DNA of 61,775 nucleotides, counting the filler. It is 3 parts of 3 records of this genome, joined end to end, with 100 filler letters (N's around TTAATTAATTAA, not from the genome) between each part and the next. Parts side by side here need not be neighbours in the genome. Positions count along the whole stretch, not along the records: positions 30,659 to 51,533 come from SRR22947727_1655; 2 more parts are not named here. The stretch is one strand, 5' to 3'. Below are positions 2,179-51,706 of the stretch, piece by piece. How positions within the stretch are numbered: position 1 is the stretch's first letter; each line of letters starts with the position of its first letter. The position numbers were made by a program, and so were the translations under genes. Under the pieces are notes generated by a model. The model made no database searches. It was not told the origin of the DNA and was given only the letters and a program-made list of their open reading frames with translations.

Positions 2179-4589
2179 TTCGACTGCAACAATCGTTGCT
2201 GCAAATCCTGAACCAATCCCTGCAACTGCGGGTTCTGCGGATTCGTTGTCAGGGCGCGATTTGCAAAATCCAGGGCCTCTTTAATCCGCCCGTTATCACG
2301 CATAATTGCGGCAATGCCGGTGAGATACTCAACATTGTAGGGTTCGATTTCGACAGCACGATTCAGCGGCACAATCGACTCCTCAAATCGCTCCAGGGAA
2401 TTCAACGCAACTCCGTAAAAATAGTGAGTCTGCGCATGATTCGGCATCAGCTCAGTCGCTGTTTTCAATTCCAACAATCCTTCGTCGTAGCGTTTTTGAC
2501 GCACCAGAAACCGAGCATACGCATCGTGGGCAAGGCCTTTATTCTCAGGAACCATCGCGGATTCAATCGCTCCTTTAAATTCTGTCTCCGCGTCATTGAT
2601 CCGGTTCTGCCCCAGCAAAAGCTCGGCGAGATTGACATGCGTCGGCACGTATTCGGGCTCCACTCGAATCCCGTCTCGATAGGCCTTTTCAGCATTGGCA
2701 ACATCGCCGAGGTCGGTATAGAAAAGCGCCAGCCCCATGTGGCCTGCCGCTCGGTCTGAAACCGCCATTTGCTGGGCAATGAATTCCGCCTTCGCTTTTT
2801 CAAAATCGGCCTTTTGCGTTTCATCCATAAAACTCGCTGCTGGAGCCAAAATTCGCGCAGCCTCAGTGCGAACCGCACGAACCGAGTCGCGTAGAAAACG
2901 TCCCGCAATCTGCAATCGCTGCTGGGGCTGAAGCGGCATTATGGCGCTGACGGCTTGCTTTCGAATCGCCGGAATAGGATCATCCATCTGCGCCATGATT
3001 GCCTGCAGACTTTGCTGCGTGGGCGCATGGCGGCTTGCCATCGCTTCGATCGCTGTTGCCCGAACAATCCCCGGACGTTTTGTGTCAGCGGCCAGAGCCA
3101 TTAATTTTTCCAAAGCTCCCGGACTTCCTGAGCGGCCATCGGCTAATAATTCACCGTAGTGCGCATTGCGCGGACCTTTGCCCCACCATTTGAAGAATGC
3201 GTCGGTTGCCCAATCGACATCTTTATCCGTGTGACAGTTCGTGCAGGCATCCGGTGAGTTCGTTTTCTTCGCCAAATCGGGACGCGGAATCCGCAAGCTG
3301 TGATCGCGGCGGGCATCCACCACCATGAAATTTTTCTCCGGCATATGGCACTCGACGCATTGCGCTCCTGTGCTTCCCATTTGGTGAAAATGGTGAGACT
3401 CTGGCTGATACTTCGTTCCATCGTGACACTGCAAACACAGCGCGTTTCCCGTGGCTTTTAGCTTCATGGAATGCGGGTTGTGGCAGTCAGTACAGCGCAC
3501 GCCTTTATGATACATCTTGCTCTGCACAAAAGATCCATAAACGTATACCTCCTCATCGATCTGACCGTCGTGATGATACAACTGATCGTTCAAAACCGAC
3601 GGCGCGTGAGTATCGTGAAATGACTGTCCCGCCTCGTAATTCTCCGTGAGAAGCTGACGGTGAGCATGGCATCGCGCGCAGGTATCGACTTGAACCGTCG
3701 ACTCAAGCGGCACCGTTCGCTCCGGTTGACGTGTCTCGGGATTCAACGCCCAGGCACCTTCGGTAGGTTCCTTCAACTTCACGACCAGCCCTTTCGACTG
3801 CAAATAGCTCGCCATTTTTTCTGTGTCGACCGCTTCGCCGCTTTCAGCTCCTCCATTCTTCGTCCAATTGGCCCATTTCACATGTTCAGAAGCAGGGCCA
3901 TGACACGCCTCGCAGCTCACGTTCATCTCCGACCACGTCGTGTTGTATTCGTTTTTCTCGTGATCGAATCCCTTTTTCAAATCCGTCGAGTGGCAGTCCG
4001 CACACATGTAATTCCAGTTAAAATGGCGACGCGACCAATGCAGGATATCCGAGGACGGAATCGCCTCATCGGGATACAAATGATACCAGCGTTGCCCGCC
4101 TTCTTCGGCAGGACGTGAATCCCAGCAAACCTGGAGAGCCTGATAGCGGCCGCCGGGAAATTTAATCAAATACTGCTGCAACGGATAATGCCCGAACGTG
4201 TAATCGATTTTAAAATCTACGAGGTCGCCCTCAGGACCTTCCGTATTCACCCAAAATTCCCCGTCTTTTTTATAAAATCGCGTCTTTGCTCCGAAGTGAT
4301 CAAACGTCACATCCGAAAAGTCTCCCAGCACCGATTCCGCTGTCGCCGGCATCATGGCTTTGTGGTGATCACTCAGCATCCAGTCCGCAAACTCCGGCTG
4401 GTGACAATTCTTGCACTGTCCGACGCCCACGTATTTTGCATCTGCGATGTCGTGATACGGCGAATACGGCTCGACTGAAGCCGTTTTCGAACCTGAGTCA
4501 GGTTTGGCCGACGGATCCGATTCATTACAGGAAATCAGGCCCACAAGGGTCAACAAACACAGCAACAGTCTCACAGAAAAATTCGTCAT
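2175..4589 (-). CDS. Multihaem c-type cytochrome lipoprotein with HEAT and TPR repeats
   Basis: Eight CxxCH motifs (CKNCH, CADCH, CEACH, CARCH, CTDCH, CLQCH, CVECH, CTNCH); lipobox LISC after Met at 4589; helical repeat C-terminus. Confidence 0.88.
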   Translation of the reverse strand: MTNFSVRLLLCLLTLVGLISCNESDPSAKPDSGSKTASVEPYSPYHDIADAKYVGVGQCKNCHQPEFADWMLSDHHKAMMPATAESVLGDFSDVTFDHFGAKTRFYKKDGEFWVNTEGPEGDLVDFKIDYTFGHYPLQQYLIKFPGGRYQALQVCWDSRPAEEGGQRWYHLYPDEAIPSSDILHWSRRHFNWNYMCADCHSTDLKKGFDHEKNEYNTTWSEMNVSCEACHGPASEHVKWANWTKNGGAESGEAVDTEKMASYLQSKGLVVKLKEPTEGAWALNPETRQPERTVPLESTVQVDTCARCHAHRQLLTENYEAGQSFHDTHAPSVLNDQLYHHDGQIDEEVYVYGSFVQSKMYHKGVRCTDCHNPHSMKLKATGNALCLQCHDGTKYQPESHHFHQMGSTGAQCVECHMPEKNFMVVDARRDHSLRIPRPDLAKKTNSPDACTNCHTDKDVDWATDAFFKWWGKGPRNAHYGELLADGRSGSPGALEKLMALAADTKRPGIVRATAIEAMASRHAPTQQSLQAIMAQMDDPIPAIRKQAVSAIMPLQPQQRLQIAGRFLRDSVRAVRTEAARILAPAASFMDETQKADFEKAKAEFIAQQMAVSDRAAGHMGLALFYTDLGDVANAEKAYRDGIRVEPEYVPTHVNLAELLLGQNRINDAETEFKGAIESAMVPENKGLAHDAYARFLVRQKRYDEGLLELKTATELMPNHAQTHYFYGVALNSLERFEESIVPLNRAVEIEPYNVEYLTGIAAIMRDNGRIKEALDFANRALTTNPQNPQLQGLVQDLQQRLLQSN

Positions 4590-30658: not shown

Positions 30659-30659
30659 C

Positions 30660-41242: not shown

Positions 41243-41677
41243 TTAATCCCCGTCAAATTCGGCTTTTGATGGCCGCCCACGATTGCTTTTCACCGCGCCT
41301 CGAATTTTTTTAGCCGCCAAGCGCCGGCGTTGACTGCCCAAAGTGGGTTTGGTGGCCACGCGCGGCTTGGGGCGCTGCAAAGCTTGCTGCAGCAAAGTCA
41401 CCAACCGGTTACGCACAATTTCTCTATTTCGGGCCTGATGGCGTGTTTCATCACATTGCAAGATAAGCGCACCATCTTTGGTCCAGCGCCGCCCAGCCAA
41501 TCGCTGCAAGCGCGCTTTAACCGGATCGCTCAGAGCCGGAGAACGCGCCGCTTCAAAGCGCAACTCAACCGCCGAGCTGACCTTATTCACGTTTTGACCA
41601 CCCGGGCCAGAGGCGCGCATGAACTGCTCGCTTAGCTCCCATTCCTCGATGATAATTTTATCCGATACGCGCAGCAT
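41243..41677 (-). CDS. arfB: Alternative ribosome rescue aminoacyl-tRNA hydrolase ArfB (YaeJ)
   Basis: RASGPGGQNVNKV; basic tail TKPTLGSQRRRLAAKK. Confidence 0.95.
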   Translation of the reverse strand: MLRVSDKIIIEEWELSEQFMRASGPGGQNVNKVSSAVELRFEAARSPALSDPVKARLQRLAGRRWTKDGALILQCDETRHQARNREIVRNRLVTLLQQALQRPKPRVATKPTLGSQRRRLAAKKIRGAVKSNRGRPSKAEFDGD

Positions 41678-41724: not shown

Positions 41725-41754
41725 AAAAAGGGCCGCTTGAAACAAGCGACCCTT
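41725..41754 (-). terminator. Intrinsic terminator upstream of arfB
   Basis: Minus strand AAGGGTCGCTTG-ttt-CAAGCGGCCCTTTTT. Confidence 0.8.
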
Positions 41755-41822
41755 CGAGACTTACGGAGGTGGGCCGGTTAGGCAGCCACCAATTCAGTTG
41801 ATCCTGCGATCAAGGGTTGCCT

Positions 41823-41879
41823 TCAGACGCGGCTCTCCTGAACTGTTCCGACACCTCTCTCCAATACCTCTCTAGACAC
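41823..41879 (-). CDS. Putative 18-aa small protein MSREVLERGVGTVQESRV
   Basis: GTG start directly after GAAAGGAGGTGGTCC; 19 codons including TGA. Confidence 0.5.
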   Translation of the reverse strand: MSREVLERGVGTVQESRV

Positions 41880-41915
41880 TGGACCACCTCCTTTCACATT
41901 GTTGAACTCATCCTT

Positions 41916-41943
41916 ACCGTGGCAGAGTTTACAGCTTTGTCAA
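41916..41943 (-). promoter_or_regulatory. Putative sigma70 promoter
   Basis: Perfect TTGACA, 16-bp spacer, degenerate -10 CACGGT. Confidence 0.5.
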
Positions 41944-42016
41944 ACAAATCTTTGCAGGGAAAATAAGCTTTTTCAGGCCTAGGTGAAAAATCCAGCAGAT
42001 AGACCGACACCGCGCA

Positions 42017-51633: not shown

Positions 51634-51706
51634 GCTGGGGCGGGAGGATTCGAACCTCCGAATACCGCTACCAAAAAGCGGTGCCTTACCACTTGGCCAC
51701 GCCCCA
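51634..51706 (-). tRNA. tRNA-Gln(TTG)
   Basis: TGGGGCGTGGCCAAGTGGTAAGGCACCGCTTTTTGGTAGCGGTATTCGGAGGTTCGAATCCTCCCGCCCCAGC; anticodon arm CCGCT-TTTTGGT-AGCGG; 3' end cut by contig edge. Confidence 0.95.

Follow-up and report, generated by a model that had tools for sequence, protein, structure and literature searches.

A putative Rhodobacterales form of the CC2171 RNA family, with a predicted self-locking ribosome-binding site, is frequently located upstream of arfB

Within a 61,775-nucleotide (nt) stretch of DNA, hereafter called the window, which consists of three parts joined end to end (positions 30,659 to 51,533 derive from record SRR22947727_1655), we analysed a compact element on the minus strand that lies directly upstream of arfB, the gene for an alternative ribosome-rescue aminoacyl-tRNA hydrolase. 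The element carries a promoter hexamer, an unusually long Shine-Dalgarno (SD) sequence, an 18-codon open reading frame (ORF), a distal sequence complementary to the SD (the anti-SD) and an intrinsic terminator. Sequence comparisons indicate that it is a divergent Rhodobacterales relative of the small RNA (sRNA) family CC2171 (Rfam RF01867), known in Caulobacter as CCNA_R0051. The explanation that we favour, and to which we assign approximately even odds, is a composite one, wherein the element is a member of this family that locks its own SD and start codon, and arfB is reached by transcriptional read-through.

The element is real, and its features lie far beyond what would be expected by chance. 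A read-out of the sequence located every feature listed in the original prediction, which had been made from the letters of the window, on the minus strand and at the positions given there (Table 1). These form a self-contained unit, as had been proposed, with the arfB ATG located 47 nt past the terminal T run and 49 nt past the terminator stem. A search of the window for a 19-nt box at three or fewer mismatches returned one match, and no match of any kind was found in 100 shuffled sequences. The predicted fold of the RNA has a free energy of -74.5 kcal/mol, compared with -62.0 +/- 4.4 kcal/mol for shuffled versions (z = -2.84), and only 1 of 200 shuffles was equally stable.

Apparent relationship to the CC2171 RNA family

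When the window was scanned against Rfam by E-value, positions 41903-41729 of the minus strand aligned with the whole of the RF01867 model (positions 1-159), which is annotated as "caulobacter sRNA CC2171" (33.9 bits, E = 1.5e-5). The conserved 5′ box of this family, cAAcaAucGAAAGGAGGUGAUCCAGUGUCU, is present in the window as CAACAAUGUGAAAGGAGGUGGUCCAGUGUCU, and the stretch from GAAAGG to UCU is identical to the consensus at 21 of 22 positions. As in RF01867, the RNA is predicted to end in a 3′ terminator and to be about 160-200 nt long, the distance from box to terminator being 165-219 nt in the 25 Rhodobacterales copies described below. The closing helix of the family (CAUUGUC/GACAAUG) and its inner hairpins are not kept in the window, where the cmscan alignment contains non-standard pairs. 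In place of these helices, the Rhodobacterales consensus has three others, which we call P1 (the SD paired with the anti-SD), P2 and P3. The original prediction had matched the element to no named family and had noted that a match to a characterised sRNA would remove its novelty; the RF01867 match, albeit below the gathering score, therefore takes away part of that novelty.

Further copies were collected by scanning genome contigs with the box pattern. At least 120 loci were listed, 80 of them with long flanks; two plasmid loci and the window bring the set considered here to 123 copies. Classified according to the ORF beginning in the box, the copies listed comprise 63 of an MSHC-like type (from Hyphomicrobiales, Caulobacterales, Acetobacteraceae and others; ORFs mostly of 20-27 codons), 25 from Rhodobacterales (18 codons in 24 copies and 22 codons in one), 16 from Bradyrhizobium and Xanthobacteraceae (14 codons), 14 that initiate with ATG (26 codons in nine copies), four from Azospirillum (57-60 codons, signal-peptide-like) and one other (23 codons). 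All counts for Rhodobacterales refer to the 25 copies among the matches listed, of which 24 are distinct and which form our alignment A1. Each locus has one match and, among the matches listed, the chromosomal contexts are diverse. In the plasmid collection only the box region was matched, in replicons of Azospirillum and Methylobacterium.

Nearly all of the 120 listed loci bear alphaproteobacterial names; a few are from gamma- or beta-proteobacterial contigs, or from other contigs of metagenome-assembled genomes (MAGs). The contigs L008, L047, L101, L104, L105, L112, L014 and L120 are labelled as Gammaproteobacteria, Betaproteobacteria, Planctomycetaceae or Parcubacteria MAGs. Some of these oddly labelled assemblies contain MSHC-like ORFs, a type characteristic of Alphaproteobacteria, and binning errors are therefore suggested; the gamma-type copies that initiate with ATG look genuine.

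Scores against the RF01867 model grade across these groups. Eight of the nine MSHC-like copies tested pass the gathering score (76.7-103.8 bits), and a plasmid copy of CC2171 in Methylobacterium radiotolerans pNYY1_1 (L002, positions 2491-2664) scores 82.8 bits. Three 14-codon copies score 41.7-54.6 bits, a second Rhodobacterales copy (L071) 43.2 bits and two ATG-type copies about 37 bits, and two tested loci, including the Azospirillum locus L037, give nothing at E <= 0.01. Two sequence traits that the search pattern did not impose are also common across the groups: GA precedes AAGGAGG in 114 of the 123 copies, and 22 of 25 Rhodobacterales copies and 87 of 97 others have CAAC or AACA in the 18 nt ahead of the box. 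These unforced similarities argue for homology rather than for convergence on a complement of 16S ribosomal RNA (rRNA).

We therefore regard the window element as a probable divergent Rhodobacterales relative of RF01867. The two have in common the 5′ box (CAACA followed by GAAAGGAGGUGRUCCAGUGUCU), a length of about 190 nt, a promoter of their own, a terminator and a short GUG-initiated ORF that begins in the box. They differ in that the ORF of the window has 18 codons and encodes an unrelated peptide, and in that the closing helix is replaced by the SD:anti-SD pairing; the SD is free in 43 of 54 MSHC-like copies, whereas it is buried in the window element. Gene context differs as well, since CCNA_R0051 faces a convergent neighbour in Caulobacter ("> > <" in Table 1 of PMC6237742) and the window element heads arfB.

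A more distant resemblance is to the MmgR/suhB sRNAs (RF00519), which carry a CCUCC-type motif just ahead of the terminator, as the window element does. This family gives only a weak match, at positions 41790-41715 (16.7 bits, E = 0.65, compared with a gathering score of 41), and its CCUCC is exposed, whereas that of the window is predicted to pair with the RNA's own SD.

CC2171 is reported to have been described originally by Landt et al. in 2008. Expression in Methylorubrum has since been confirmed by Northern blot, in a preprint which states that no condition affecting the Caulobacter sRNA had been identified (10.1101/2022.01.24.477521). Schrader et al. (2014) state that two previously predicted noncoding RNAs are in fact translated, and in their probe table "CC2171_CC2172" and R0051 share one probe, with the note "Translated CCNA_03965" (PMC4117421). 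The same source lists CCNA_R0051 at 2404309-2404501 (193 nt) with a mapped 5′-triphosphate (5′-PPP) site, flagged as conserved, and lists CCNA_03965 at 2404323-2404409 as "ORF mapped by Ribosome profiling" with a CTG start codon, which places the mapped transcription start 14 nt ahead of the annotated coding sequence (CDS). A strain carrying CCNA_03965 fused to yellow fluorescent protein (YFP) is listed there, and a figure legend states that four chosen small CDSs gave bands of the expected size on western blots (PMC4117421). The Caulobacteraceae copies in our set have an in-frame CTG 18 nt ahead of the GTG, and thus the annotated CCNA_03965 most likely represents the same frame begun six codons early. 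Elsewhere, CCNA_R0051 is listed as peaking in the G1 phase in one further Caulobacter paper, and is described as a 209-nt RNA with its own promoter that increases 4.4-fold after mitomycin C in a manner that is not agent-specific (PMC6237742). The accessible portions of the literature searched on CC2171 and CCNA_R0051 assign the family no function. Given that the family is known and that its founder is reported to be translated, the window element is not a new kind of RNA.

A box complementary to the 16S rRNA tail within a conserved fold

The most conspicuous part of the element is the box GAAAGGAGGTGGTCCAG (41895-41879), which can pair over 17 nt, with one G-U pair, to the 3′ tail of 16S rRNA. 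The window contains no rRNA gene according to the Rfam scan, and therefore the end of the 16S gene of M. radiotolerans (...CTGCGGCTGGATCACCTCCTTTCT) served as the reference. The complementarity claimed in the original prediction is thus borne out, and its extent is revised from 15 to 17 nt. The last G of the box is also the first base of the start codon. Calculated as duplexes in trans, the box pairs with the 16S tail at -33.1 kcal/mol and with the internal anti-SD at -20.3 kcal/mol, whereas a plain GGAGG pairs with the tail at -8.7 kcal/mol.

In the predicted structure of minimum free energy (MFE) of the window RNA, the SD is paired with the distal sequence CCACCUCC. RNAalifold and explicit pair counts on alignment A1 define three helices upstream of the terminator. 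P1, between the SD (GGAGGUG, columns 21-27) and a distal CAYCUCC (columns 160-166), is paired in 97.6% of cells, so the long-range anti-SD first noticed in the window is conserved across Rhodobacterales. Because the SD strand is fixed, P1 changes on one side only, and the anti-SD varies solely between C and U opposite G (13 GC and 11 GU) and between A and G opposite U (15 UA and 8 UG). P2, the hairpin that contains the start codon (columns 29-37 with 44-52), is paired in 98.1% of cells. P3, whose 5′ strand corresponds to ORF codons 12-15, shows changes on both sides in six of its eight pairs (for example, 10 CG, 6 UA and 5 UG). Together the three helices are paired in 94.1% of cells, compared with 39-49% for slid controls, and neither this percentage nor the covariation score was reached by any of 500 shuffles.

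Individual folds tell a similar story. P1 is present in the MFE structure of 21 of the 25 Rhodobacterales copies, and the closed form is more stable than the best fold with an open box by 12.2 +/- 3.6 kcal/mol. In the window ensemble, nucleotides 4-21 of the box have an unpaired probability of approximately 0, whereas the values are 0.9-0.99 for the CAACAAU that precedes the box and 0.26-0.98 for GAAA. The anti-SD follows the SD by about 125-138 nt across the copies. When burial is defined as at least five of the seven SD nucleotides being paired in the MFE structure, the SD is buried in 24 of 25 Rhodobacterales copies (21 of them through a distal C[AGU][CU]CUCC) and in all 11 copies of the 14-codon type that were folded, where the partner is a CACCUC inside the ORF.

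Two further observations concern the 14-codon type (16 loci listed, such as L013, L048 and L063). Its conserved peptide, MSxxKRCHLAGxxR, coincides with the ORF-internal CACCUC anti-SD, and L013 and L063 have a transfer RNA (tRNA) gene on the other strand about 150-240 nt upstream of the element.

An isoenergetic two-state switch, in which an SD-like decoy within the ORF (GGUGUCGG) pairs with CYGG..CAYC, was also considered and is at best a weak possibility. RNAalifold proposes the decoy helix once the translation initiation region (TIR) is removed, and pairing is possible in 87.5% and 96.9% of cells, but at least six of its eight pairs formed in none of 25 constrained single-sequence folds.

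The element appears to have a promoter of its own. Among the 24 Rhodobacterales relatives having upstream sequence, 19 carry TTGACA at 49-52 nt before AAGGAGG, and this fixed distance supports the -35 half of the promoter originally proposed. The -10 half fared less well, since the hexamer is poor and a scan of the window with the sigma-70 consensus called no minus-strand promoter at the element. From the spacing of the -35 hexamer and the mapped start of CCNA_R0051, we infer that transcription starts approximately 13-16 nt before GAAAGG. The spacer between the -35 hexamer and the presumed -10 hexamer is conserved as ACACAAAATCTGTGGCAGGCT in L003, L007, L015, L044, L068, L071, L091, L114 and others, and carries a CACA-N5-TGTG inverted repeat that could be an operator; the spacers of the window (41922-41937) and of L082 differ from it.

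Table 1. Features of the element and of arfB in the window (positions along the whole stretch)
Feature	Positions	Strand	Remarks
-35 hexamer TTGACA	41938..41943	minus	Promoter of the element
Candidate -10 hexamer CACGGT	41916..41921	minus	Weak; 16 nt after TTGACA
CAACAA motif in single-stranded 5′ leader	41899..41904	minus	Unpaired probability 0.9-0.99
SD stretch GAAAGGAGGTGGTCC	41895-41881	minus	Read from sequence
17-nt box GAAAGGAGGTGGTCCAG	41879..41895	minus	Contains the SD; complementary to 16S 3′ tail CUGGAUCACCUCCUUUC, one G-U
GTG-initiated ORF of 18 codons, MSREVLERGVGTVQESRV, plus TGA	41823..41879	minus	Read from sequence
P2 hairpin, TCCAGTGTCT / AGGTATTGGA	41860..41883	minus	Predicted to bury the start codon; window MFE and RNAalifold
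Conserved junction strand GAGAGGTGTCGGAACA	41844..41859	minus	SD-like; ORF codons 7-12; near-invariant alignment columns
P3, CAGTTCAG (41845-41838) with CTGAATTG (41797-41790)	41790..41845	minus	RNAalifold columns 67-74 with 117-124
Inner stem-loop TTGATC-gcag-GATCAA	41813-41798	minus	Enclosed by P3
Nested stem-loop	41822-41780	minus	Read from sequence
Distal anti-SD GGCCCACCTCC, 3′ strand of P1	41765..41775	minus	Pairs with GGAGGTGGTCC at 10 of 11 positions
Intrinsic terminator	41725..41755	minus	Stem 41755-41727 (13 pairs, 7 G-C; loop of 3), then TT
arfB	41243..41677	minus	ATG at 41677; NCBIfam NF006718, 175.7 bits (cut-off 100)

Association with arfB

The linkage to arfB that was noticed in the window is retained in 19 of the 25 Rhodobacterales copies, where the gene is downstream on the same strand. 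A tblastn search with the ArfB protein of the window identified the gene in the window and in 17 other loci at E values below 1e-3; the remaining case, L114, has an 18-residue match to the ArfB N-terminus (E = 0.005) at the point where the locus ends. Three Rhodobacterales loci have only about 140 nt of downstream sequence, and are counted neither as having nor as lacking arfB. From terminator stem to arfB, the gap is 15-90 nt in 13 copies (15, 17, 17, 19, 32, 34, 49 in the window, 55, 57, 65, 72, about 74 and 90 nt), 128-144 nt in three copies, two of which have a second terminator in between, and 898-1392 nt in three copies, where an EamA or CMAS gene is inserted. Thus, the position of arfB is tight and frequent, but not obligatory.

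All 25 copies have a terminator hairpin with a T-rich tail (mean -21.4 kcal/mol). In six loci (L099, L093, L114, L089, L068 and L081), arfB starts 15-34 nt past this terminator. The gene can hardly have its own promoter in so short a space, and read-through is therefore the simplest account; judging from this arrangement, arfB is probably transcribed in this manner. Among Rhodobacterales, a comparable sRNA is UpsM of Rhodobacter sphaeroides, which lies ahead of the dcw cluster and constitutes the promoter-proximal segment of a longer transcript (PMC5089854). We compare the two by description only, and the accessible text on UpsM mentions neither an anti-16S box nor an ORF. In the four loci with spacers of 15-19 nt (L099, L093, L089 and L114), the spacer has no recognisable SD, and so translation of arfB there would have to be SD-independent.

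The penicillin-insensitive murein endopeptidase gene mepA is located upstream of the element in the window, where a RecQ gene lies further downstream of arfB, and mepA is also syntenic in relatives. Part of the arfB linkage may therefore be plain conserved gene order. Among the loci fetched, the closest ArfB and MepA proteins are from Roseovarius (74% and 63% identity, respectively). The window has a GC content of 48.3%, which is low for Rhodobacterales, and its sole Rfam match at the gathering threshold is a tRNA gene at 51635-51706 on the minus strand.

Translation of the ORF

The SD, a 7-nt spacer and the start codon have the correct geometry for translation, and at least occasional translation of the ORF is probable. 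Of the 25 Rhodobacterales copies, 24 have an ORF of 18 codons. At codon 19, 23 of the 24 distinct copies carry a stop codon (12 TAG, 9 TGA and 2 TAA), and none carries TGG. The length of the ORF is maintained, whereas its amino acids are not. At codons 3, 4, 5 and 8, second-position substitutions bring in unrelated residues, and codons 13-18 are hypervariable. As judged from these comparisons, the peptide appears to be without amino-acid constraint, and what matters would then be the engagement or passage of a ribosome.

Within the ORF, codons 2-12 have a value of 0.494 on a measure resembling the codon adaptation index (CAI), compared with 0.741 for gene windows of this genome, which places them in the lowest 0.5%. 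The rare codons in this conserved half of the ORF may simply reflect constraints on the RNA.

Proposed mechanism and alternative explanations

According to the composite explanation that we favour, the unit would be an RNA gene, about 190 nt long and equipped with a promoter and a terminator of its own, that represents the Rhodobacterales form of CC2171 (CCNA_R0051). Transcription reaches the anti-SD some 125 nt beyond the SD, which would allow a fresh transcript to load a ribosome before locking. In the finished RNA, the SD and start codon would be buried both by the distal anti-SD (P1) and by the local hairpin (P2), and reopening would require a 30S subunit, the 16S tail of which would have to enter at the GAAA/CAACA end, which is free (-33 compared with -20 kcal/mol). 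Engagement or passage of the ribosome would matter, rather than the peptide, and arfB would be made by read-through, which would tie the capacity for ribosome rescue to the promoter of the element.

Several observations weigh against this explanation. The window copy falls well short of the RF01867 gathering score of 75 bits, and sequestration of the SD is not family-wide, as only 11 of 54 MSHC-like copies bury it. In the ensemble of the window RNA, the TIR is almost wholly sequestered at equilibrium. The coding signal is weak: for codons 3-18, the ratio of nonsynonymous to synonymous variation (pN/pS) is 0.90 in frame, compared with 0.82 in one control frame and 0.77 in the other, and stop codons among the variable codons number 0 of 144 in frame and 1 of 144 in each control frame. 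With respect to arfB, the gene lies 0.9-1.4 kb from the element in L003, L055 and L009, is absent from L046, L061 and L071, each of which has at least 1.84 kb of downstream sequence, and is preceded by a second strong terminator-like hairpin in L006 and L021 (at about 2181-2210 in oriented coordinates). It was found in none of 66 loci from outside Rhodobacterales, with flanks of up to 2-2.5 kb, some of them ended by the contig. No antiterminator was found in the folds described below, and thus read-through, if it occurs, would be without visible control. Finally, the copies for which expression as a discrete small RNA has been shown are those of Caulobacter and Methylorubrum.

Some of these observations would fit an RNA that acts on its own, as a riboregulator or by binding 30S subunits, and that has the 16S tail itself as its target. 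It could serve as a sponge, as a standby site or to sense free 30S subunits; the ORF would then be incidental, and the adjacency to arfB an inherited gene order devoid of functional significance. We consider this alternative to be a credible minority view. The box is the sole part that is invariant across the subfamilies, whose ORFs have 14, 18, 20-27, 26 or 57-60 codons. In the three Rhodobacterales loci without arfB the element persists next to a histidine kinase gene on the other strand (L046), a polyprenyl synthetase gene (L061) or an amidase gene (L071), and the synteny of mepA indicates that the whole neighbourhood is conserved. Outside Rhodobacterales the downstream genes are mutually unrelated, and include those for PilZ, OsmC, TctC, HI0933-like, DUF188, RNB and NAD synthase proteins, among others. 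Moreover, 75.4% of Caulobacter CDSs reportedly have no SD, so that an SD of 17 nt is out of keeping with translation of the ordinary kind. Against this alternative, the same source describes the Caulobacter ORF as ribosome-occupied and lists its YFP fusion strain (PMC4117421). Also difficult to reconcile with a purely free-standing RNA are the maintained stop-codon column and the six loci in which the terminator leaves almost no room for a separate arfB promoter.

Two observations on downstream genes can be added here. In the Bosea loci L027 and L029, an ORF on the same strand (2288-4018) begins 287 nt after the box and encodes RNB and cold-shock domains, which identify it as an exoribonuclease of the RNase R/II type, another enzyme of RNA or ribosome quality control; these are two related genomes only. 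Linkage to rRNA operons was considered and rejected, since a 16S rRNA gene lies about 900 nt downstream in L002 (3547-5020, on the same strand as the CC2171 copy of M. radiotolerans pNYY1_1) and in no other locus.

In E. coli, arfA is coupled to tmRNA. An analogous but more speculative proposal, which we think improbable at present, is that the family probes the 16S 3′ tail: only a free 30S subunit whose tail is intact and accessible would enter the locked box at its GAAA/CAACA toehold and open the RNA, the RNA would report on the pool of initiation-competent 30S subunits, and arfB would have been wired to this signal in Rhodobacterales. The coupling of arfB to the supply of free ribosomes would then be comparable to that of arfA and tmRNA.

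The original prediction also raised the possibility of a translation-sensing leader that gates read-through into arfB. In its classical form, this would be a ribosome-dependent transcription attenuator dedicated to arfB, wherein translation or stalling on the leader ORF switches between antiterminator and terminator. The arrangement is suggestive, as a leader ORF and a terminator lie 47-49 nt ahead of a gene whose linkage holds for 19 of 25 copies, rare codons occur in the conserved half of the ORF, and the 5′ arm of the terminator is SD-like and, in some copies, a possible pairing partner for the anti-SD. A fixed association with the regulated gene is nevertheless lacking, given that the element exists without arfB in three loci and that other orders have no common downstream gene. 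In addition, folds of the 25 nascent RNAs as far as the terminator loop, with the box free or blocked, gave no consistent partner for the 5′ arm of the terminator. The candidate antiterminator (2:3) segment, from the anti-SD to the terminator arm, folds at -13.3 kcal/mol, no better than an upstream-shuffled control (-12.9 kcal/mol) and far less stably than the average terminator, and we reject a classical antiterminator as unsupported. The stop codon of the window is about 70 nt ahead of the terminator, and the anti-SD is transcribed long after the SD. A close alphaproteobacterial parallel is rnTrpL/peTrpL of Sinorhizobium meliloti, a leader that combines a short ORF with an intrinsic terminator and gives rise to an sRNA upon termination and to the downstream mRNA upon read-through (PMC6614838, PMC7298713). 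In that leader the antiterminator is defined and Trp codons have a regulatory role, whereas the window element has no informative codon run and belongs to a type that is not tied to one downstream gene. The literature searched yields no precedent for regulation of arfB, or for arfB in connection with an sRNA, a leader peptide or attenuation. Dedicated attenuation thus seems quite unlikely.

Still more doubtful is an ordinary small-protein gene that has a very strong ribosome-binding site and whose product is the 18-residue peptide. The initiation geometry and the fixed length of the ORF are what such a gene would exhibit, and in Caulobacter the homologue carries the annotation of a translated CDS (PMC4117421). 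However, pN/pS is no lower in frame than in the control frames, codons 3-5, 8 and 13-18 accept radically different residues, and codons 12-15 covary as an RNA helix. The peptides of the subfamilies have nothing in common beyond Met-Ser, NCBIfam has no family for five of them, and the literature searched contains nothing relevant to their strings; the 18-residue peptide itself is too short for protein tools. The absence of a conserved functional peptide equally argues against a dual-function sRNA. A separate situation pertains in Azospirillum (L001, L037, L057 and L119), where the box, with ATG, heads an ORF of 57-60 codons with a hydrophobic, signal-peptide-like N-terminus. The box may there have been captured by a real gene for a small secreted protein, or may itself have been the origin of such a gene.

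The mRNAs of the type I toxins hok, tisB, aapA1, txpA and bsrG likewise have a long SD that is sequestered over a long range in the full-length RNA, but we regard a toxin mRNA as very improbable, given that the peptide MSREVLERGVGTVQESRV is hydrophilic (as originally noted), hypervariable and unconstrained rather than a selected hydrophobic membrane peptide, that each locus has a single match and the chromosomal contexts vary, and that a scan for sigma-70-type sites, the only kind covered, revealed no convergent promoter from which an antisense RNA could arise; its one site on the plus strand (41937-41964) reads away from the element.

Implications

With the family already known, we consider four aspects to be new. 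A Rhodobacterales clade that is missed by the Rfam threshold is added to the family. The invariant box is recognised as a 17-nt complement of the 16S tail, a property of which our text searches, which did not cover the original description of the family, returned no mention. The predicted distal anti-SD lock is specific to this clade. Lastly, the tie to arfB is apparently operonic, and the literature searched offers no precedent for it.

The box represents the longest possible match to the 16S tail and is present at 120 or more loci, in a class of bacteria where most genes reportedly have no SD (75.4% in Caulobacter). The anatomy of the element suggests parts that can be tested, namely a toehold that is free, an SD and a start codon that are buried, a third helix that covaries, and an ORF that is kept in frame but not in sequence. 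If the arfB link is not functional, the element would still be a clean case of a family that is missed by the Rfam threshold in a whole order. If the link is functional, it would constitute a new way of setting the capacity for ribosome rescue.

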